NCBI GenBank assembly: GCA_023264975.1
Contig: JAHFUS010000001.1
Location: 61,113-125,112 of the forward strand
Length of the DNA: 64,000 bases
Source of the DNA: Actinomycetes bacterium
GTDB taxonomy: Bacteria; Actinomycetota; Acidimicrobiia; Acidimicrobiales; GCA-2861595
Reading direction: 5' to 3'
The translations under genes and the position numbers were made by a program. Below are positions 592 through 38,109 of this stretch, one piece after another (position 1 is the first letter of the stretch; every line of letters starts with the position of its first letter). Under the pieces are notes generated by a model. The model was not told the origin of the DNA, ran no database searches, and saw only the letters and a list, made by a program, of their open reading frames with translations.

Positions 592-808
592 GGCCCGTGA
601 CGCTATCGCCCGACCCGGTACGGATCATGGGCTCGGCGCGGCGGACGATCCTCAAGTGGTCTGGTGGTCGACCGGATCCGATTCGATGACCTCGGAGCCG
701 GCACGCGCCGACCTTGCAGGGCCGGTTCGATGTGGACACTGCCTGGTCCGGCGAAGATCCGGGCCCACGGATCCTTCCCCGGAGCCGGTGGGAGCAGTGC
801 ACGCGTCG

Positions 809-1789
809 TCAGCCAGGCACGGACCCGTGGGCAGCCCGGTATGCGGCCCACACCTCGGCGGGCACCCTCCCCCTGGCGCTGGTGGTCAGCCCCGACAGCA
901 CGGCCCAGGCCCGCACGTCGGCGGTGGTGGGCTCGGGCGCAGGCACCTCGCCGACGAGTTCCAGCTGGGCGAAGGCGAGGTCGGCGGGCCGGTGGGTGGC
1001 CAGCTCCAGGGCGGCGGCGCCGAGGAAGCGGTAGGCCCACTCCTGGGCCAAGGGACGGGTCTCGCAGAACACCAGCGGCACCGTGGGAAAGCGCACCTGC
1101 GCCTCGGCCAGCCCGTCGAGCACGACCGCAGGGCGCACCCGTTCGAGCCGGAACACCGCGGAGTAGCGGTCCTCGACGACCAGCGCGGCCCGGGGAACGC
1201 CGGCCAACTCGGCCAGGAGGTAGCGGAGCCTGCCGCCGGTCAGCGTGGCCACGAGGTCAGCGAGGCTCTTGCGCTCGACGGCGGCCACGATGTGCCCGTC
1301 GAGCTCCACCGCGTAGTCGCCGGCCGGCAGCGCCCGCCGGACGGTGTCGGCCTGCTGGGCGGTGAACCGCCACGGGTAAGTCTCGTGGCTGTCGACCAGG
1401 ATCTCGAGGCGGCCGGCGGCGCTGCGGGCACGGGGCACGCCGACGTTGGGGCGGGCCTGCTTGGAAGTCCTGGCGCTCTGCCAGAAGATCGCCTCCCGCC
1501 CGCCCTTGAGGCGGGTGAACACGATCTGGGAGCGGTTCTCCCGCCCGCGGTCGAGCACCAGGTCGACGGCTGCGCCCCGCCGAACGCACGACCGCACGGG
1601 CACCCGCTCGACGATCTGCGGCTCGTCCGGCCAGTCGTCCGTGCGGTGGCAGTACACCTTGGCCGTCCGGGGCCAGGTGTCCCTCACCTTGAGGACGACG
1701 CCGCCGCCGTCGAGGGGCAGCCGGATCAGATACGGCAGCGAGGACTCGGCATCGGGGTTGACGGCTACGGCGAACTCGGGACGGCCCAT
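809..1789 (-). CDS. ERCC4-type nuclease domain protein with C-terminal Lsr2-like DNA-binding tail
   Basis: ORF 809..1861, with ATG at 1789 preferred (MGRPEFAV...). It carries the ERCC4 signature GDYAVELDGHIVAAVERKSLADL (GD..ERKxxxD). The C-terminus ADVRAWAVLSGLTTSARGRVPAEVWAAYRAAH matches the Lsr2 C-terminal domain pattern (IREWAR..G..VS.RGRIPA.V..AY.AA). Start is uncertain; 1831 and 1861 are also possible. Confidence 0.7.
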   Translation of the reverse strand: MGRPEFAVAVNPDAESSLPYLIRLPLDGGGVVLKVRDTWPRTAKVYCHRTDDWPDEPQIVERVPVRSCVRRGAAVDLVLDRGRENRSQIVFTRLKGGREAIFWQSARTSKQARPNVGVPRARSAAGRLEILVDSHETYPWRFTAQQADTVRRALPAGDYAVELDGHIVAAVERKSLADLVATLTGGRLRYLLAELAGVPRAALVVEDRYSAVFRLERVRPAVVLDGLAEAQVRFPTVPLVFCETRPLAQEWAYRFLGAAALELATHRPADLAFAQLELVGEVPAPEPTTADVRAWAVLSGLTTSARGRVPAEVWAAYRAAHGSVPG

Positions 1790-1899
1790 CCGACCCACAG
1801 TCTGGCCGCCGCTCCCGCCGGCGTGCCGCATGCCCGTTCCGGGTGCGGCGCCACCCGCCACATACCCTCTGCTGCGTGCAGCCGCCCCTCCTGGCTCCC

Positions 1900-2895
1900 A
1901 TGCTGCCGAGCGCGGTGGCGCCGCCCCGGGACCTGAGCGGGTACCACATCGAGCCGAAGTGGGACGGAGTGCGCCTCGTCGTAACGGTGCACGACGGTGC
2001 GATCACCATGATCACGCGCAACGGTCGCGAGGTGTGCTCGCACTACCCGGAGCTGGCCGGCCTGGTGGGGGCACTCGACGGGCGCTCCGCCGTCCTCGAC
2101 GGCGAGGTGGTCACGTTCGACGAGAAGGGCCGGACGAGCTTCCAGCGACTACAGCAGCGCATGCATGTGGCGCGGCCTTCGCCGGACCTGCTGGCCGACG
2201 TCCCCGTGGTGGCCATGCTCTTCGACGTGCTGTGGCTCGACGGCGAGCTGCTCACCGGGCTCCAGCTGACCGAGCGGCGGCGGCGCCTCGAGGAGCTTCC
2301 GCTCGAGGGCCCGAGCTGGCACCTCACCCCGCTGCTCCCCGCCGCGCCGGTGGACGAGCTGCTGCGGGCGTGCAGGGCCGTGGGCATGGAGGGTTATGTG
2401 TTCAAGCGGGCCGACTCCGCCTACTTCCCCGGCCGGCGGTCGATAGCGTGGATCAAGCTCAAGTGCATCCAGCGCCGTGAGCTGGTGGTGGGCGGGTGGA
2501 CCGAAGGGCTGGGCGGTCGCAGCGGCTCGATCGGCGCGTTGGTTGTGGGGCTCTACGGCCTCGACCGGGAGACCGGCGGCAGCGACGGGCGGCTGCGGTA
2601 CCTGGGCAAGGCCGGGTCCGGTCTCACCGAGGACTGGATCCGCCAGCTCACCACCGTCGCCCAGCGCCTGGGGACCGAAGTCAACCCGTTCACGGAGCGC
2701 CTCTCGAGCGTCCACTTCCTCGATCCGCTGCTCATCGCCGAGATCGCCTACACCCAGATCACCGAGGGCGGCACGCTTCGTACCCCGACGCTCCAGGGCT
2801 TCCGCACCGACCTCGATCCCGCCGACATCGTCGCCGACGAGGAGCTCCAGGGCATCCTCGACCGCCGCGACCTGCGGCTGCGCATCCAGGTCTGA
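1900..2895 (+). CDS. ATP-dependent DNA ligase (stand-alone LigD ligase domain)
   Basis: Contains the adenylation motif YHIEPKWDGVRL (KxDG). Later EGYVFKRADSAYFPGRRS..WIKLK is typical of ATP ligase motifs IV-V. ATG at 1900 lies inside ORF 1843..2895. Confidence 0.85.
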   Translation: MLPSAVAPPRDLSGYHIEPKWDGVRLVVTVHDGAITMITRNGREVCSHYPELAGLVGALDGRSAVLDGEVVTFDEKGRTSFQRLQQRMHVARPSPDLLADVPVVAMLFDVLWLDGELLTGLQLTERRRRLEELPLEGPSWHLTPLLPAAPVDELLRACRAVGMEGYVFKRADSAYFPGRRSIAWIKLKCIQRRELVVGGWTEGLGGRSGSIGALVVGLYGLDRETGGSDGRLRYLGKAGSGLTEDWIRQLTTVAQRLGTEVNPFTERLSSVHFLDPLLIAEIAYTQITEGGTLRTPTLQGFRTDLDPADIVADEELQGILDRRDLRLRIQV

Positions 2896-2941
2896 GGGGC
2901 GCCACGTGGTTTCCCGGCGCCGTGCGGGGGACAATGGGGGC

Positions 2942-3793
2942 ATGGCCAGATCGATCTGGGGTGGCGCCATCAGCTTCGGGCTGGTGAACGTGCCCGTGAA
3001 GCTCTATACCGCCGTGCGGAAGAAGGACGTCCGCTTCCATCAGATCCATGCCCCTGACGGCGCGCGCATCAACCAGAAGCGGGTGTGTTCCGCCGACGGC
3101 GCCGAGGTGGCGTACGAGGACATCGTCAAGGGCTACGAGATCGCCAAGGGCCAGTACGTCATCATCGAGCCCGACGAGCTGGAGTCACTCGATCCGGAGA
3201 CCACGCACACGATCGACATCGAGGACTTCGTGCAGCTGGACGAGATCGACCCTCTGTTCTTCGACGCCTCGTACTACGTGCTACCGGACGCCCGTGGCGA
3301 GAAGGCCTACCGCCTGCTGCTCGAGGCCATGCGCGACGCCGGCAAGGTGGGCATCGCCAAGGTGGTGATGCGGTCCAAGCAGTACCTGGTGGCCGTGCGG
3401 CCGGTGGGCGAGGCGCTGGTGATGTCCACCATGAACTTCGTCGACGAGGTCGTGGCCCAGGACGAGCTCGACGGGCTGCCCGGGCCGTCGGAGGGCGTGA
3501 GCGACCGCGAGCTGAAGATGGCCAGTCAGCTCATCGACTCCCTGTCCACCGACTTCGACCCGAGCAGGTACGAGGACACCTACCGAGAGAAGGTGCTCGA
3601 TCTCATCGAGAAGAAGGCCGAGGGCCAGGAGATCGTGGCGCCCACCGAGACGAGGGCCACCACGCCGGTGGTCGACCTCATGGCCGCCCTGGAGGCCTCG
3701 CTGGCCGCGGCCAAGGGCGACTCCAGGGCCAAGGGCAAGGCCCGGGACAACGACGACGACGCAGACGCCAAGGCGGGCCGGAAGGCGTCATGA
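2942..3793 (+). CDS. ku: Ku protein (NHEJ DNA-end binding)
   Basis: MARSIWGGAISFGLVNVPVKLYTAVRKKDVRFHQIH is the canonical bacterial Ku N-terminus. The basic C-terminal tail is (AKGKARDNDDDADAKAGRKAS). ATG at 2942 is in frame with ORF 2477..3793. Confidence 0.9.
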   Translation: MARSIWGGAISFGLVNVPVKLYTAVRKKDVRFHQIHAPDGARINQKRVCSADGAEVAYEDIVKGYEIAKGQYVIIEPDELESLDPETTHTIDIEDFVQLDEIDPLFFDASYYVLPDARGEKAYRLLLEAMRDAGKVGIAKVVMRSKQYLVAVRPVGEALVMSTMNFVDEVVAQDELDGLPGPSEGVSDRELKMASQLIDSLSTDFDPSRYEDTYREKVLDLIEKKAEGQEIVAPTETRATTPVVDLMAALEASLAAAKGDSRAKGKARDNDDDADAKAGRKAS

Positions 3794-3910
3794 CCACACG
3801 GTGCCCGTGCTGTCGGCGCGGCGCCGGTCCGTCCCACGCCGCTCTGGCCAGCCGATCCGGACCGCCGCGGCACCGATCAGCTGACCGGTCCCCGTGCGGA
3901 CGCCAGCACG

Positions 3911-4843
3911 GTGGCTGAACGCACGGCCAAGCAGTCCGGGGTCACCGTCGAGGTCGGGGACCGCCGGCTCAGCCTGTCCAACCTCGACAAGGTCCTGTAC
4001 CCGGAGGCCGGCTTCACCAAGGGACAGGTGATCGGCTATTACCAACAGCTCGCGCCCGCCCTGCTCCCCCACCTGGCCGGCCGACCACTCACGCTGAAGC
4101 GATACCCCAACGGCGTGGACAGCAAGTTCTTCTACGAGAAGCGCTGCCCCACCCACCGGCCCGACTGGGTGCAGGTCGCCCCCGTGCGGAGCGGCCACAA
4201 CCAGGACGTCATCTGCTACTGCGTGGCGGCGGACCTGGCCACGCTGGTGTGGATGGCCAACCTGGCGGCCCTCGAGCTGCACCCGTCGCTGTCGAGGGCG
4301 GACGGGATCGAACGCCCGACCATGATGGTCTTCGACCTCGACCCCGGTCCGCCGGCCACCGTCGTCGAGTGCTCCCGCATCGCGTTGCGCCTGCAGGAGA
4401 TATTCGGCCGGATGGGCCTGCAGAGCGTGGCCAAGACGTCGGGTTCCAAGGGCATGCAGCTGTACGTGCCCCTCAACACGCCCGTCACCTACGAGGGCGG
4501 CACCAAGGACTTCGCCCTGGCCGTTGCGCAGCTGCTCGAGGGGCGGTACCCGGCCGAGGTCACCTCGAACATGAAGAAGGACCTGCGGCCAGGAAAGGTG
4601 TTCATCGACTGGAGCCAGAACGACCAGCACAAGACGACGGTGTGCGTGTACTCGTTGCGGGCCCGGGCCCGGCCCACCGTGTCGACGCCGGTGACCTGGG
4701 ACGAGGTGGCCGCCACCGCCGAGTCCGGAGATCCGGGCTCGCTGGTCTTCGAGGCGGACGACGTGGTGGAGCGCGTGCGCCGGCTGGGCGACCTTTTCGC
4801 CTGCCTCAACGAGGTCGACCAGACCCTGCCCCGACTCGCTTGA
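3911..4843 (+). CDS. LigD polymerase/primase domain protein (stand-alone)
   Basis: VEVGDRRLSLSNLDKVLYPEAGFTKGQVIGYYQQLAPALLPHLAGRPLTLKRYPNGVD and DLDPG..SGSKGMQLYVPL are typical of LigD-Pol (AEP primase-polymerase). Confidence 0.85.
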   Translation: MAERTAKQSGVTVEVGDRRLSLSNLDKVLYPEAGFTKGQVIGYYQQLAPALLPHLAGRPLTLKRYPNGVDSKFFYEKRCPTHRPDWVQVAPVRSGHNQDVICYCVAADLATLVWMANLAALELHPSLSRADGIERPTMMVFDLDPGPPATVVECSRIALRLQEIFGRMGLQSVAKTSGSKGMQLYVPLNTPVTYEGGTKDFALAVAQLLEGRYPAEVTSNMKKDLRPGKVFIDWSQNDQHKTTVCVYSLRARARPTVSTPVTWDEVAATAESGDPGSLVFEADDVVERVRRLGDLFACLNEVDQTLPRLA

Positions 4844-4911
4844 CCCCTGCTCCCCCCGACATCGCAGTGACGCCTGCCGCACTGGCGCGCACCACCGGCT
4901 CGGGGTGGCGC

Positions 4912-6381
4912 ATGGGCGCCCTCCTGGCCCTGTCCGCAGGGCTGGTGGCCGCCTTCTCGCTGCCGTCATGGGGGTGGTGGCCACTCGGCGTCGCCGGCGT
5001 GGCCGCCCTGCCGGCGCTGCTCGCCGACCGGGGAGCGAGGGGCAGGGCGATGGTCGGTGTCGGCTTCGGCGCCGGCTTCTTCGTCCCCGGGCTGTGGTGG
5101 ATGGGTGAGTTCAACCCGGTGGGCGCCGCCCTGGTGATGGTGCTGGAGACCGCCTTCGTGGGTGCCGCCATGGCGGCCGTGCCGCCTGGGAGGGGACGCA
5201 CCGTCGCGCTGCCCGGCGCCCTGGTGCTGGCCGAGGCGGTGCGGGGGGCGATCCCCTTCGGCGGCCTCCCTATGGCCGGGCTGGCCCTCGGGCAGGCCGA
5301 CGCGCCGATGGCGGGAGCAGCCCGCATCGGGGGCGCGCTGCTGGTGCTGGCCCTGATCGCGGTGGCCGCCGTGGGCGTGGCCGAGCTCGCGGCACGGCGC
5401 TGGGCGCCGGCCGCCCTCGCCCTCGGCCTGGCCGTCGCCACCACGCTGGCCGGCGCGGTCGCTCCCGATGGCGGCGCCGGCAGGCCGCTCCACACGGCGG
5501 TGGTGCAAGGGGGCGGCCGGCGTGGGTTCACCGGCGCCGAGGGGGACGACCCGGCCGAGGTCCTCGCCCGCCACCTGGCCGCCGGAGACGACGTGCAAGG
5601 GCCGGTGGACCTGGTGGTGTGGCCGGAGGACGTGATCGACGTGGAGGGACCGATCGGTGGGCAGCAGGAGGGCGCCCTGCTGGCCGACGCGGCCCGTCGA
5701 GTGGACGCCACCCTCGTCGCCGGGGTGGTGGAGGACGCCGGCCCCGACCGGTTCCGCAACGCGGCGGTGGCGTGGGGGCCCGACGGGGCCATCGTCGACC
5801 GCTTCGAGAAGGTCCACCGGGTCCCGTTCGGCGAGTACGTCCCGGGTCGGGCGTTCTTCGACCGCTTCGCCGACCTGTCCCCCATCCCCCGTGACGCCAT
5901 CGCCGGCAAGGGCCCCGGCATCCTGCACACGCCCGCCGGGGACCTGGGCGTGATGGTGTCGTACGAGGTGTTCTTCGCCGACCGGGCGCGCGGTGCGGCC
6001 CGGGCCGGCGGCCGGCTGCTTCTGGTGCCCACCAACGCCGCCTCGTTCAGTACCAGCCAGGTGCCGTCGCAACAGCTGGCGACGGCCCGGTTGCGGGCCA
6101 TCGAGACCGGACGCGACCTGGTACAGGCGGCGCCCACCGGCTACAGCGCGGTCATCGACAACCGGGGCCGCGTCACGATGCGCTCCACCCTGGGCCGGCG
6201 CCAGGTGCTCCACCGCACCGTGCAGCTCCGGTCGGGCTCGACCCTGTACGTGCAGGCCGGCGACTCCCCCGTGCTGGCCCTCGCCGCTGTTGCGCTCGCC
6301 GCCGGGTGGGCGTTCAGGCGACGATCTCGTCGGCCAGGGCGATGCGCAGGTCCTCGTCCTGGACGAAGACCAGCTTGTTGA
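4912..6381 (+). CDS. lnt: Apolipoprotein N-acyltransferase-like (Lnt; nitrilase-fold) with Ser at the catalytic Cys position
   Basis: Polytopic N-terminal half followed by a nitrilase-type domain: DLVVWPE (Glu), FEKVHRVPFGEYVP (Lys), and GVMVSYEVFF where Lnt normally has CYE. Alternative GTG start at 4867. The 3' end overlaps gtrA on the other strand. Confidence 0.75.
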   Translation: MGALLALSAGLVAAFSLPSWGWWPLGVAGVAALPALLADRGARGRAMVGVGFGAGFFVPGLWWMGEFNPVGAALVMVLETAFVGAAMAAVPPGRGRTVALPGALVLAEAVRGAIPFGGLPMAGLALGQADAPMAGAARIGGALLVLALIAVAAVGVAELAARRWAPAALALGLAVATTLAGAVAPDGGAGRPLHTAVVQGGGRRGFTGAEGDDPAEVLARHLAAGDDVQGPVDLVVWPEDVIDVEGPIGGQQEGALLADAARRVDATLVAGVVEDAGPDRFRNAAVAWGPDGAIVDRFEKVHRVPFGEYVPGRAFFDRFADLSPIPRDAIAGKGPGILHTPAGDLGVMVSYEVFFADRARGAARAGGRLLLVPTNAASFSTSQVPSQQLATARLRAIETGRDLVQAAPTGYSAVIDNRGRVTMRSTLGRRQVLHRTVQLRSGSTLYVQAGDSPVLALAAVALAAGWAFRRRSRRPGRCAGPRPGRRPAC

Positions 6382-9264: not shown

Positions 9265-10508
9265 CCCTGCTCAGCCCGTACCACCAGGGTGGCGTTGTGG
9301 CCGCCGAACCCGAACGAGTTCGACAGGACGGGGCCCGAGGCGGCGCGCGGCTCACCGTGGACGATGTCGACGGTGACGGTCGCGTCGGTGCGCTCGTGGT
9401 TGGCGGTGGGGGGCACGAGGCCGTTGCGCGAAGAGAGGATGGAGGCCACTGCCTCCACCGCGCCGGCGGCACCGATGAGGTGGCCGGTGACGCCCTTGGT
9501 GGACGTGACGGGCGGCGGGCTGCCGGCGAACACCTTCACCAGCGCCTCCGCCTCGGCCGCGTCGTTGAGCGGGGTGGACGTGCCGTGGGCGTTGACGTGG
9601 CCGATGTCAGCCACCCCCACCCCGGCGTCCTCGAGGGCCAGCTCCATGCACGCCACCGCGCCGCTGCCGTCGGGCGACGGGGCGGTGATGTGGTGGGCGT
9701 CGGAGTTGCGCCCGTAACCCACGATCTCGCCGTAGATGCGGGCGCCGCGGGCCTCGGCCAGGTCCCAGCGCTCGAGCACGAGGAAGGCGGCGCCCTCGCC
9801 CATGACGAAGCCGTCCCGGTCGATGTCGAACGGGCGCGACGCCCGGGCCGGATCGTCGGAGCGGCCGCTGAGCGCCCCCATGCGGGCGAAGGCGGCCATG
9901 GCGACGGGCGTGATGGCAGCCTCCGCCCCCCCGGCCACCACCACGTCGGCTGAACCGTCCCGGATGAACCGGGCGGCCTCCCCGACCGCGTGCGTGCCCG
10001 CCGCGCACGCGGTGGCGATGCAGATGTTGGGCCCCTTCCACCCGTGGCGCATGGCGATGGTGCCGGCGGTGGCGTTGGCCATCATCATGGGGACGAGGAA
10101 CGGGCTGACCCGCATGGGGCCACGCTCGAAGAGGACCTTCTCCTCCGCCTCCTGCGTCCACAGGCCGCCCACGCCGGTGCCCGCCACCACGCCGCAACGG
10201 TTGGGGTCGGCCCCGATGTCACCGGCATCGGCCAGGGCGTCGGCGGCGGCCGCGTAGCCGAGCTGGGTGACCCGGTCGGCCCGCCGGGCCTCCTTGTGGC
10301 CGAAATAGGAGCCGGGGTCGAAATCGGGGACCTCGCAGGCGAAGCCGACCGGCTGCTCGGTGGCGTCGTAGCGGGTGATGGGCGCGGCCGTGGGCCTGCC
10401 CTCTAGCAGGGTGGCCCAGAAAGTCGCCAGGTCGGAGCCGGCGGGCGTCTTCACGCCCATGCCGGTGACCGCCACCCGGGGCCGGCCGCGGTGGTCGGTC
10501 GCGCTCAT
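9261..10508 (-). CDS. fabF: Beta-ketoacyl-ACP synthase II (FabF/KasA type)
   Basis: VAVTGMGVKTP.., active-site context ATACAAGTHAVG, ..HVNAHGTSTPLND.. and GHLIGAAG.. with SNSFGFGGHN. Confidence 0.9.
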   Translation of the reverse strand: MSATDHRGRPRVAVTGMGVKTPAGSDLATFWATLLEGRPTAAPITRYDATEQPVGFACEVPDFDPGSYFGHKEARRADRVTQLGYAAAADALADAGDIGADPNRCGVVAGTGVGGLWTQEAEEKVLFERGPMRVSPFLVPMMMANATAGTIAMRHGWKGPNICIATACAAGTHAVGEAARFIRDGSADVVVAGGAEAAITPVAMAAFARMGALSGRSDDPARASRPFDIDRDGFVMGEGAAFLVLERWDLAEARGARIYGEIVGYGRNSDAHHITAPSPDGSGAVACMELALEDAGVGVADIGHVNAHGTSTPLNDAAEAEALVKVFAGSPPPVTSTKGVTGHLIGAAGAVEAVASILSSRNGLVPPTANHERTDATVTVDIVHGEPRAASGPVLSNSFGFGGHNATLVVRAEQG

Positions 10509-36155: not shown

Positions 36156-36866
36156 CTACCCGGTCGGTGCCTTCTCGTAGCGGTACCCGAGCCCTCGGAT
36201 CGTGATGATGCGCTGGGGATTGGACGGGTCCTGCTCCAGCTTGGACCGGAGCCGCTTGATGTGGACGTCGAGGGTCTTGGTGTCCCCCACGTAGTTCGAC
36301 CCCCACACGCGGTCGATGAGCAGGTCGCGGGTGAGGACCCGTCCGGCGTTGTCGAGGAGGATCTCGAGCAGATCGAACTCCTTGAGCGGGAGGGCGACCT
36401 GGTCCCCGCGGATCGTCACCTCGTGACGCTCGGGGTCGAGGCGCACGTCGCCGACCTCAACCACGGAGTCGCCGCCGGAGTCGGTGTCCTGGCGCGGCGC
36501 CCGACGAAGCACGGCCCGCATCCGGGCCACCAGCTCCCGCAGGCGGTACGGCTTGGTGACGTAGTCGTCCGCCCCCACCTCGAGGCCGACCACCGTGTCG
36601 ATCTCGGACCCCTTGGCCGTCACCATGATGATCGGTGTGCGCGACCGGCTGCGGATCTCCCGGCACACGTCCACGCCCGACAGGCTGGGCAACATGACGT
36701 CGAGCAGCACCAGGTCCGGGCGCACCGCGTCGAATACGGCCAGGGCGGTGATCCCGTCCCGGGCCACGTGGACCAGGAAGCCCTCGCGCTTCAGTCCGAG
36801 CATGAGGGCCTCCACGAACGAGTCCTCGTCCTCCACGATCAGCACGGACGGTTGGGTGTCTGCCAT
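36156..36866 (-). CDS. regX3: OmpR-family response regulator, RegX3/PhoP type
   Basis: SVLIVEDEDSF..DLVLLDVMLPSLSGVDVCREIRSRSRTPIIMVTAKGSEIDTVVGLEVGADDYVTKPY.. is close to mycobacterial RegX3 as I remember it. The C-terminus is a winged helix. Confidence 0.85.
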   Translation of the reverse strand: MADTQPSVLIVEDEDSFVEALMLGLKREGFLVHVARDGITALAVFDAVRPDLVLLDVMLPSLSGVDVCREIRSRSRTPIIMVTAKGSEIDTVVGLEVGADDYVTKPYRLRELVARMRAVLRRAPRQDTDSGGDSVVEVGDVRLDPERHEVTIRGDQVALPLKEFDLLEILLDNAGRVLTRDLLIDRVWGSNYVGDTKTLDVHIKRLRSKLEQDPSNPQRIITIRGLGYRYEKAPTG

Positions 36867-36879
36867 GTCGCTCCAGTCG

Positions 36880-38109
36880 TCAGCTTGCGTCGGCCACCAG
36901 GGCGACCGGCCCGGGCTCTGCGGGGAGACGAAGGGTGAAGGTCGACCCCTCGCCCTCCACCGATTCGACCAGGACATCCCCGCCGTGGTTCGAGGCGATG
37001 TGGCGGACGATGGACAGGCCCAATCCGGTGCCGCCGGTATCGCGCCCGCGCCCGCGGTCTACGCGGTAGAAGCGCTCGAAGATCCGGTCGAGGTCCCGGG
37101 AGGGGATGCCGATGCCGTGGTCCCGCACGAGCAGCTCGATGCTGCTCCCGTCTGTGACCGGGAGGACGTGGACGGTGGAGCCGTCGTCGGAGTACTTCAC
37201 CGCGTTCTCCAGCAGGTTGGCCATGGCCGACACGAGCTGGCGGCGGTCGCCGCGGACCGACCACGTGTGCGGAACGGGATCGACGGCAAGGCGCACAGCC
37301 CGCAGCCCGGCCGAGGGCAGGACCTGCTCGACCGCTTGGGCGACGACCTCGTGCACCCGCACCGTCTCCTGGCGCGTGGTCTCCTCCGCCTCGAGGCGGC
37401 TGAGGTCGAGCAGGTCGTCAATGATGCGGGCGACACGGAACGCCTCGTTCTCCATCCGCTCGGCCAGCCTCTGGACGACGGCGTGGTCGTCCTCGCCCAC
37501 GAGCGTCTCGGCCAGGAGCCCGAGAGCCGCCACCGGCGTCTTGAGCTCGTGGCTCACGTTGGCCACGAAGTCGCGGCGCACGGCGTCGAGCCGCTTACGA
37601 TCGGACACATCCTCCACGGTCACCGCCGCCGCCCCGTTCTCGAGCGGCACAGCCGTGAGCGTAAGCGTCCGCCTCGGGGGGCCGTAGAGGTCGAGCGGAC
37701 GGGTCTCGATCTTGCCGGCCGCCGCTTCGGCCAGGAGGTCCGACAGGGCCCGCCAGGCCAGGGCGTCGGAGGCGCGGGTGCCGAGCAGCTGGTCGGCTGC
37801 CTCGTTGCGGAACAGCACCCGCCCGTCGTCCGCCGTGACCACCACACCGAGGGGCAGCGCCTCGAGTGCGCCGCCGAGGGACCGGGCCAGGTGGAGCGCC
37901 TCCAGCGACCGGTCGACCGCGCTCGTGGCCGCTCGGGACAGGTAGGCCACGGTGTCGGCCGGCAGCGGCTCGTCATCCGCAGGTTCGAGGCGGGCGGCGA
38001 TGGCGAGCATGTGTTCCCGGAGGAGGCGTTGGCGCCGGGCCTGCCGGAGGGACAGCCAGGCGAGCGCCCCGCACGCAAGCGCGGTGACACAGCCGAACAG
38101 GAGCTGCAC
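36880..38109 (-). CDS. senX3: Sensor histidine kinase, SenX3/PhoR type
   Basis: One N-terminal TM, a PAS-like segment (DDGRVLFRNEAADQLLG), H-box FVANVSHELKTP, N box LLENAVKYS, and G boxes DHGIGIP and GTGLGLSIV. Confidence 0.85.
   Translation of the reverse strand: MQLLFGCVTALACGALAWLSLRQARRQRLLREHMLAIAARLEPADDEPLPADTVAYLSRAATSAVDRSLEALHLARSLGGALEALPLGVVVTADDGRVLFRNEAADQLLGTRASDALAWRALSDLLAEAAAGKIETRPLDLYGPPRRTLTLTAVPLENGAAAVTVEDVSDRKRLDAVRRDFVANVSHELKTPVAALGLLAETLVGEDDHAVVQRLAERMENEAFRVARIIDDLLDLSRLEAEETTRQETVRVHEVVAQAVEQVLPSAGLRAVRLAVDPVPHTWSVRGDRRQLVSAMANLLENAVKYSDDGSTVHVLPVTDGSSIELLVRDHGIGIPSRDLDRIFERFYRVDRGRGRDTGGTGLGLSIVRHIASNHGGDVLVESVEGEGSTFTLRLPAEPGPVALVADAS

Follow-up and report, generated by a model that had tools for sequence, protein, structure and literature searches.

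Does a nuclease gene that stands head to head with a set of non-homologous end joining (NHEJ) genes belong to their pathway? The question is raised by a 64,000-nucleotide stretch of contig JAHFUS010000001.1, from an Acidimicrobiales genome (assembly GCA_023264975.1, positions 61,113 to 125,112 of the forward strand); "the window" below means this whole stretch. Near its left end, an open reading frame (ORF) on the minus strand points away from genes for an ATP-dependent DNA ligase, Ku and a primase-polymerase (PrimPol). An initial annotation read this ORF as an ERCC4 nuclease fused to an Lsr2-type DNA-binding tail, and proposed it as the end-processing nuclease of the adjoining NHEJ set. Our analysis points elsewhere. 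On balance, we think the protein is probably a stand-alone, laterally mobile, structure-specific endonuclease, made of a barrel resembling the LigD 3'-phosphoesterase (PE) and an ERCC4 core with interchangeable DNA tethers (Lsr2, winged-helix or none), and not a dedicated Ku/LigD component.

The longest mechanical ORF runs over 809..1861 on the minus strand and would give 350 amino acids (aa) from a GTG. We chose the 326-aa product as the likely one because homologues are about 320 aa long and because our two family alignments, one of 20 close homologues (A1) and one of 26 diverse members at 35-61% identity (A4), both begin at the ATG at 1789. The N-terminus is then MGRPEFAVAVNPD... (MGRPEF...). 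The protein has three domains rather than two: an N-terminal beta-barrel, the ERCC4 domain and the Lsr2-type tail. The nuclease motif and the tail translate exactly as the initial annotation quoted them, and the profile searches it proposed place both domains above the curated Pfam cutoffs. The gene and the parts of its product lie as follows, with the evidence for each in brackets.

809..1789, minus strand: nuclease coding sequence for the 326-aa three-domain protein, stop codon 809-811, ATG 1787-1789 (ORF list and family alignments)
1460..1789, minus strand: N-terminal domain, about aa 1-110 (AlphaFold model, Foldseek)
1025..1396, minus strand: ERCC4 (XPF/Mus81/Hef-type) nuclease domain, aa 132-255 (PF02732, Foldseek, translation)
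1253..1321, minus strand: catalytic signature GDY...ERKSLAD, with G157 D158, E172 R173 K174 and D178 (translation, conservation in A1 and A4)
830..931, minus strand: Lsr2-type DNA-binding domain, aa 287-320, with the RGR minor-groove motif R306 G307 R308 (PF23359, profile matches, translation)

In the Pfam scan the ERCC4 domain reaches 58 bits with PF02732 (cutoff 24; E 1.3e-15). PF02732 also matches 25 of the 26 diverse family members, and the family profile matched the Hef nuclease 1J22 at E 1e-5. The catalytic motif, GDYAVELDGHIVAAVERKSLADL, occupies nucleotides 1253-1321, and an acidic pair upstream of the signature, D133/E136 (VDSHE), lies at 1382-1393 on the minus strand. All eight residues (D133, E136, G157-D158, E172-R173-K174 and D178) are invariant among the close homologues and invariant or at least 90% conserved among the diverse members. 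This conservation argues for an active enzyme. AlphaFold modeled the full-length protein with a predicted local distance difference test (pLDDT) score of 79, and Foldseek matched the nuclease domain of that model to Aeropyrum pernix XPF, Pyrococcus furiosus Hef, Mus81 and human XPF at E values from 3e-7 to 1e-4 (2bgw, 2bhn, 1j22, 1j24, 2ziw and 6sxb, each with a probability of 1.0). Nuclease-domain identity to these distant relatives is only about 20-24%. The (HhH)2 domain is missing, in that the Pfam scan returned no HhH family at E up to 0.1. The ERCC4 nuclease of the window is genuine and, judging from these features, probably active. ERCC4 nucleases are textbook repair enzymes of archaea and eukaryotes, and the XPF/Mus81 enzymes among them characteristically cut 3' flaps.

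At the other end of the protein, the Pfam scan gives 38 bits for PF23359 (Lsr2_DNA-bd; cutoff 26.9, E 1e-9), and the family profile picks up known structures of Lsr2 DNA-binding domains (2KNG, 6QKP and 6QKQ) at E values of about 1e-6. As sequence comparisons, the profile matches to both the ERCC4 and the Lsr2 domain are far beyond chance. G307 and R308 of the RGR motif are invariant among the close homologues. No Lsr2 N-terminal dimerisation/oligomerisation domain was found in the Pfam scan of the window protein. The tail (aa 282-322) also matches the C-terminus of the PADLOC type II methyltransferase model MTase_II (PDLC03328, E 3.7e-6), which indicates that other DNA enzymes, too, carry a fused Lsr2 DNA-binding domain. 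RefSeq calls several full-length members of the family "histone-like nucleoid-structuring protein Lsr2" (on Rhodococcus plasmid pDK3, locus L168; on a Streptomyces plasmid, L169; and plasmid matches H4-H6 and H8). On ERCC4 nucleases that share only the DNA-binding tail with Lsr2, this product name is likely a systematic mis-annotation.

The N-terminal domain was not part of the initial annotation. Searches of Pfam, NCBIfam, PHROG and PADLOC gave nothing for residues 1-110, and in the family alignments these are the most conserved part of the protein. When residues 1-120 were modeled alone, AlphaFold returned an eight-stranded beta-barrel (pLDDT 85.6, predicted template modelling score 0.76), and the full-length model shows the same strands. 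The top five Foldseek matches to this domain are all LigD PE structures (3n9d, 3p43, 3n9b_B, 3n9b_A and 5dmp), that is, P. aeruginosa 3N9D and both chains of 3N9B, M. barkeri 3P43 and Methanocella 5DMP. Their template modelling (TM) scores run from 0.53 to 0.66, their probabilities from 0.98 to 1.0 and their E values from 1e-3 to 8e-2; the next match has a TM score of 0.24. The PE is a distinctive eight-stranded barrel in which two His and an Asp bind Mn and an Arg and a His bind phosphate, with a Tyr in addition (PMC3082917).

At the sequence level, the PDB-sequence search with an N-domain profile found no PE, PF13298 matched neither the window protein nor any of the 26 diverse members, and a search with the N-domain alone, which might have placed it in other architectures, gave only fragments of the same family. 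We compared the N-domain with PE profiles of 4 and then 124 sequences in hhalign, using local, low-mact and global modes. The sole register obtained, of low confidence, pairs FVVQKH..LHYDFRLEMDG of the PE with FAVAVNPD..LPYLIRLPLDG of the window protein and, when extended, VLKSW with VLKVRDTW and GAG-V-IWDRG with GAAVDLVLDRG. The putative motif remnants are collinear: FVV, L-Y-x-(F/I)-R-L-x-(L/M)-D-G, VLK..W and (W/L)DRG. In this register the Mn ligands His, His and Asp would correspond to N11, P19 and L21, the phosphate-binding Arg would be kept as R23, and the second-shell/phosphate-binding His and the Tyr would be lost, so that one of the six PE catalytic residues is kept and five are replaced. 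The family alignments show no conserved His or acidic cluster in the domain. With these residues lost, the barrel could not heal DNA ends. In the models, the N-domain has a PE-like fold, and it is probably a degenerate relative of the PE and not a phosphoesterase. We name it a "PE-like fold" rather than a member of the PE family because no sequence-level test was significant.

These parts suggest how the protein may work. From the N-terminus it would consist of a non-catalytic PE-fold barrel, the ERCC4 nuclease and an Lsr2-type minor-groove binder in the place that (HhH)2 takes in XPF. By analogy with other ERCC4 nucleases it may act as a dimer and may cut branched or flapped DNA (3' flaps, forks, splayed arms) at the junction of double and single strands. 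The Lsr2 tail would tether the nuclease to DNA, perhaps with a preference for AT-rich stretches, while the degenerate barrel with its retained Arg could contribute binding to DNA ends or to the backbone, not chemistry. The gene itself would be an accessory gene that moves laterally among chromosomes and plasmids, and its head-to-head position with lig-ku-pol would be specific to the window's lineage.

The family is large. The full-length query gave more than 6,858 matches in 90%-identity protein clusters (more than 6,800 clusters with the architecture); the best 120 of these are 67-92% identical to the query, and 118 of the 120 carry both Pfam domains. At 50% identity there were 2,258 matching clusters, 301 of them with E below 1e-30. 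Species-representative genomes yielded 404 loci, mostly in metagenome-assembled genomes (MAGs) of Acidimicrobiia, with some in Nocardioidaceae, Georgenia, Dermatophilaceae and Desertimonas. The initial annotation took the ERCC4-Lsr2 fusion to be unfamiliar. As an architecture it is not rare, with thousands of database entries under the names "ERCC4 domain-containing protein" or "Lsr2"; as a described architecture it appears to be new: our literature search found no paper that mentions ERCC4 together with Lsr2, none that joins ERCC4 with Actinobacteria and none that describes the nuclease family. Databases annotate it only generically, and it is a large single-gene family, mainly of Actinomycetota, without a published characterisation.

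The tail is the variable part. In distant members the N-domain and the ERCC4 core either end without a tail (about 270 aa) or continue into a winged-helix domain of HTH_DeoR or MarR-like type, a form seen in MAGs of Trueperaceae, Bacillota and Betaproteobacteria. A tail-less variant, P0522 (loci L178 and L179), directly follows a gene for a 410-519-aa protein whose C-terminal motifs resemble those of tyrosine recombinases, and its region also holds a phage integrase, SSB and an LmuB_C (Lamassu) fragment; it looks like an integrated element. A shared upstream partner was considered for the distant variants and rejected, the upstream genes of L178/L179 and of L180 being unrelated to each other.

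Full-length homologues of 53-57% identity are carried by 23 actinobacterial plasmids, with up to three matching places per plasmid record. The carriers include 21-kb plasmids of M. intracellulare/chimaera, M. liflandii pMUM002 and plasmids of M. ulcerans, Rhodococcus, Streptomyces and Pseudonocardia. The plasmid copies adjoin a resolvase and ParA, IS21, IS110, a Tn7-like tnsABC-tniQ set or toxin-antitoxin genes. On Rhodococcus pDK3 the homologue (5992-6975 of L168) is divergent from a Tn7-like tnsA-tnsB-tnsC-tniQ operon at 665-5611 upstream, and on M. avium p2-JPH1 and on pMUM002 it abuts an IS21 element. Some chromosomal copies have Fic, WYL, SNase, nSTAND or integrase genes around them. Identities between pairs stay at a flat 60-80%, and the classes do not separate. 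Phage records and IMG/VR held no homologues, only a generic ERCC4 PHROG was matched in PHROGs, and in PADLOC neither the nuclease nor the N-domain matched a defence model, the Lsr2 tail giving the only match.

In the window, the neighbours of the nuclease gene on the NHEJ side are the following.

1790..1899, no strand: divergent intergenic region, 86-110 bp (sequence, alignment with locus L083, ligase starts)
1876 or 1900..2895, plus strand: ATP-dependent DNA ligase of the LigD ligase-domain type (PF01068, PF04679)
2942..3793, plus strand: bacterial Ku (PF02735 at 184 bits, TIGR02772 at 328 bits)
3911..4843, plus strand: LigD-type PrimPol (PF21686 at 287 bits, TIGR02778 at 275 bits)

The NHEJ set (1876-4843) is split, with ligase, Ku and PrimPol as separate genes. 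The ligase reaches 221 bits with TIGR02779, just below the cutoff of 227.75. No canonical LigD PE is encoded in the window, according to tblastn with four solved PE sequences.

With the ligase, Ku and PrimPol of the window as tblastn queries, we searched 167 related loci and as much as 10 kb of DNA to either side of them; 116 of these loci have at least 1.5 kb upstream of the nuclease homologue. The NHEJ genes were near the nuclease in only two of the 167 (L083 and L084) and missing in 114 of the 116 informative loci. The two positive loci are two assemblies of one Acidimicrobiales lineage and are syntenic with the window; the L083 nuclease is 77% identical to that of the window. Homologues of comparable identity lie elsewhere: one of 78% identity (P0002) is found in an unrelated context of an HTH_17 gene, a HAD hydrolase and a CcdA-like pair, and one of 74% identity (P0004) sits opposite RtcB, the two genes being divergent (L174, 6663-7823 and 8001-8972). 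RtcB is an RNA ligase and so joins ends as well, but the arrangement was met only once. NHEJ genes were missing from the surroundings of all seven plasmid loci examined. The initial annotation had named conserved linkage of orthologues to ku/ligD as the point on which its proposal would stand or fall; among the 167 loci that linkage is confined to L083 and L084, and the proposal fails its own test.

Nor is there any other conserved neighbour. When the ORFs of 84 loci were clustered, the only families to emerge were generic paralogous ones (ABC transporter, SDR, histidine kinase) and DUF6629, which occurs in four loci. We found no conserved flanking DNA and no terminal repeats; nucleotide similarity stops at the ORF ends, and the upstream DNA is not common to other loci beyond the window and L083. 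Because there is no conserved neighbour, because similarity ends at the ORF and because lig/ku/pol occur at so few loci, we regard the gene as a single-gene unit.

Between the window and L083 the divergent arrangement can be examined closely. The gap between nuclease and ligase measures 110 bp with a ligase start at ATG 1900 and 86 bp with one at GTG 1876, where the L083 orthologue aligns; the two ligases are 73% identical. The head-to-head layout with about 110 bp between the starts is therefore as first described, give or take the ligase start. The nuclease start is closely preceded by 15 nt, GCGGCGGCCAGACTG (1800-1814, minus-strand reading), that are identical in L083 (about 9975-9990). This block contains the -10-like CAGACT, and the rest of the intergenic region has diverged. 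A scan of the region found no sigma-70 consensus promoter and no terminator. On the plus strand, a TAnnnT-type hexamer, TACCCT (about 1860-1878), was read from the sequence 7 nt upstream of GTG 1876 and hints that the ligase mRNA is leaderless. The shared gene order ends exactly where the nuclease gene does, at its 3' end. There, L083 has a DUF4153 gene where the window has a minus-strand ORF (1 to about 640) that runs off the left end, with a Cys-rich Zn-ribbon-like N-terminus, a hydrophobic helix and Kelch-like repeats. A histidine kinase and a response regulator at 36183-37590 of the window, about 35 kb away from its nuclease, resemble a pair that adjoins the L083 nuclease locus (39-43% identity).

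It is against this background that a role in NHEJ has to be judged. The nuclease would be co-expressed with ligase, Ku and PrimPol from a shared divergent promoter region and would trim 3' flaps or overhangs at Ku-held breaks, with the barrel recognising the 3' end and the whole supplying a function missing from the split LigD set. The short head-to-head gap fits this, as does the persistence of the layout in a relative whose other flank is different, and the absence of a canonical PE from the window leaves such a function to be filled. Flap cutting is what ERCC4 enzymes generally do, and the modeled LigD-PE fold of the N-domain is an intriguing, independent hint in the same direction. However, the linkage is missing in nearly all informative loci, equally close homologues included, and from the plasmid loci as well; the PE catalytic residues are lost, and homology to the PE is unproven at the sequence level. 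We consider this explanation unlikely. What stands of the original proposal of co-regulation and end processing is the layout itself; the family linkage that would have generalised it does not. A dedicated NHEJ role is possible in the window's lineage and is unsupported for the family.

A role in defence or exclusion of foreign DNA is equally plausible, and we hold it to be just as improbable. The Lsr2 domain would mark AT-rich acquired DNA in high-GC actinobacteria and the nuclease would attack that DNA or its replication or recombination intermediates; alternatively, the gene would serve its carrier plasmids or elements, for example by resolving intermediates. Lsr2 is known to bind AT-rich xenogeneic DNA. 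The family's presence on plasmids and in accessory regions, close to integrases, transposons, toxin-antitoxin pairs, Fic, nSTAND and the Lamassu fragment, is consistent with such a role, as are a context that varies while the sequence stays highly conserved and the shared tail of the type II methyltransferase model. Against it, the nuclease and its N-domain resemble no PADLOC defence model, no methylase, immunity or sensor gene accompanies the family as a conserved partner, and homologues are missing from the phage and IMG/VR collections. The tail-less and winged-helix variants imply, moreover, that the core can function without the Lsr2 tail.

The reading that we prefer, a stand-alone mobile endonuclease, has points against it too. 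Enzyme activity is predicted for all members from sequence and models, and the substrate class is extrapolated from the distant ERCC4 relatives found by Foldseek. The PE-like assignment relies on the Foldseek matches to an AlphaFold model, at the E values given above; the PE structures were absent from the top 50 matches when the full-length model was the query, and the hhalign comparison of the N-domain with the PE was not significant (E 0.15-0.24 with 71- and 124-sequence profiles). Mobility is deduced from the plasmid copies and the gene surroundings, and the taxonomic labels of MAGs may be in error. Finally, the lig-ku-pol adjacency survived in the lineage of the window and L083 though the other flank was rearranged. 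There may therefore be a local functional tie with lig-ku-pol in this lineage.

Such a tie could take a more specific form, which we offer as a rather remote prospect. The protein would be a flap- or overhang-trimming nuclease in which a barrel derived from the LigD PE recognises 3' ends and the ERCC4 domain cuts, resecting ends in actinobacterial NHEJ or in microhomology-mediated joining; in the window's lineage it would have been drawn into the ku-lig-pol locus, replacing the missing phosphoesterase module. Weakest is the notion of a non-enzymatic nucleoid-associated or regulatory protein, which the "Lsr2" label implies and which NCBI product names on several plasmid homologues and the genuine Lsr2 DNA-binding domain might seem to favor: the protein lacks the oligomerisation domain of Lsr2, its N-terminus folds differently and all ERCC4 catalytic residues are strongly conserved, which makes it very improbable.

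The family matters beyond this locus. This large bacterial ERCC4 family, whose active site is intact, runs to thousands of sequences and includes copies on mycobacterial plasmids such as pMUM002. The replacement of (HhH)2 by an Lsr2 or winged-helix tail, together with a degenerate PE fold, suggests a new way to target a structure-specific nuclease, and the pairing of ERCC4 with a PE-like barrel suggests an evolutionary link between two repair modules that were previously unconnected. In annotation, some members wrongly bear the name of the nucleoid protein Lsr2, and in the study of NHEJ the family is a concrete, weakly supported candidate for an end-trimming activity.

Among known systems, the short archaeal XPF of A. 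pernix (2BGW/2BHN) and the nuclease domain of P. furiosus Hef (1J22-1J25) have the same ERCC4 fold and the same signature, DxxE...GD...ERKxxxD, and they are of comparably small size, without a helicase domain. The window protein differs from them in being bacterial, in lacking (HhH)2, in its Lsr2-type C-terminus and in its extra N-terminal beta-barrel. XPF-ERCC1 and Mus81-Eme1 share the nuclease fold and motif, and by analogy structure-specific cleavage at junctions of double and single strands would be expected; each of these is a heterodimer that includes a non-catalytic subunit and (HhH)2 domains, whereas the window family has no conserved partner gene. Lsr2 of Mycobacterium and Streptomyces (2KNG, 6QKP) has the C-terminal DNA-binding domain with RGR in common with the window protein, which lacks the oligomerisation domain and carries the Lsr2 domain as a tail on an enzyme. 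The PE of LigD and the stand-alone archaeal PE (3N9B/3N9D, 3P43, 3P4H, 5DMP) share the eight-stranded antiparallel beta-barrel and are the only convincing fold matches, whereas the N-domain is unmatched by PF13298 or profile-profile comparison and keeps only the Arg (R23). What departs from the classical pattern is the set of accessory domains and the bacterial, mobile distribution; the catalytic module itself is classical.

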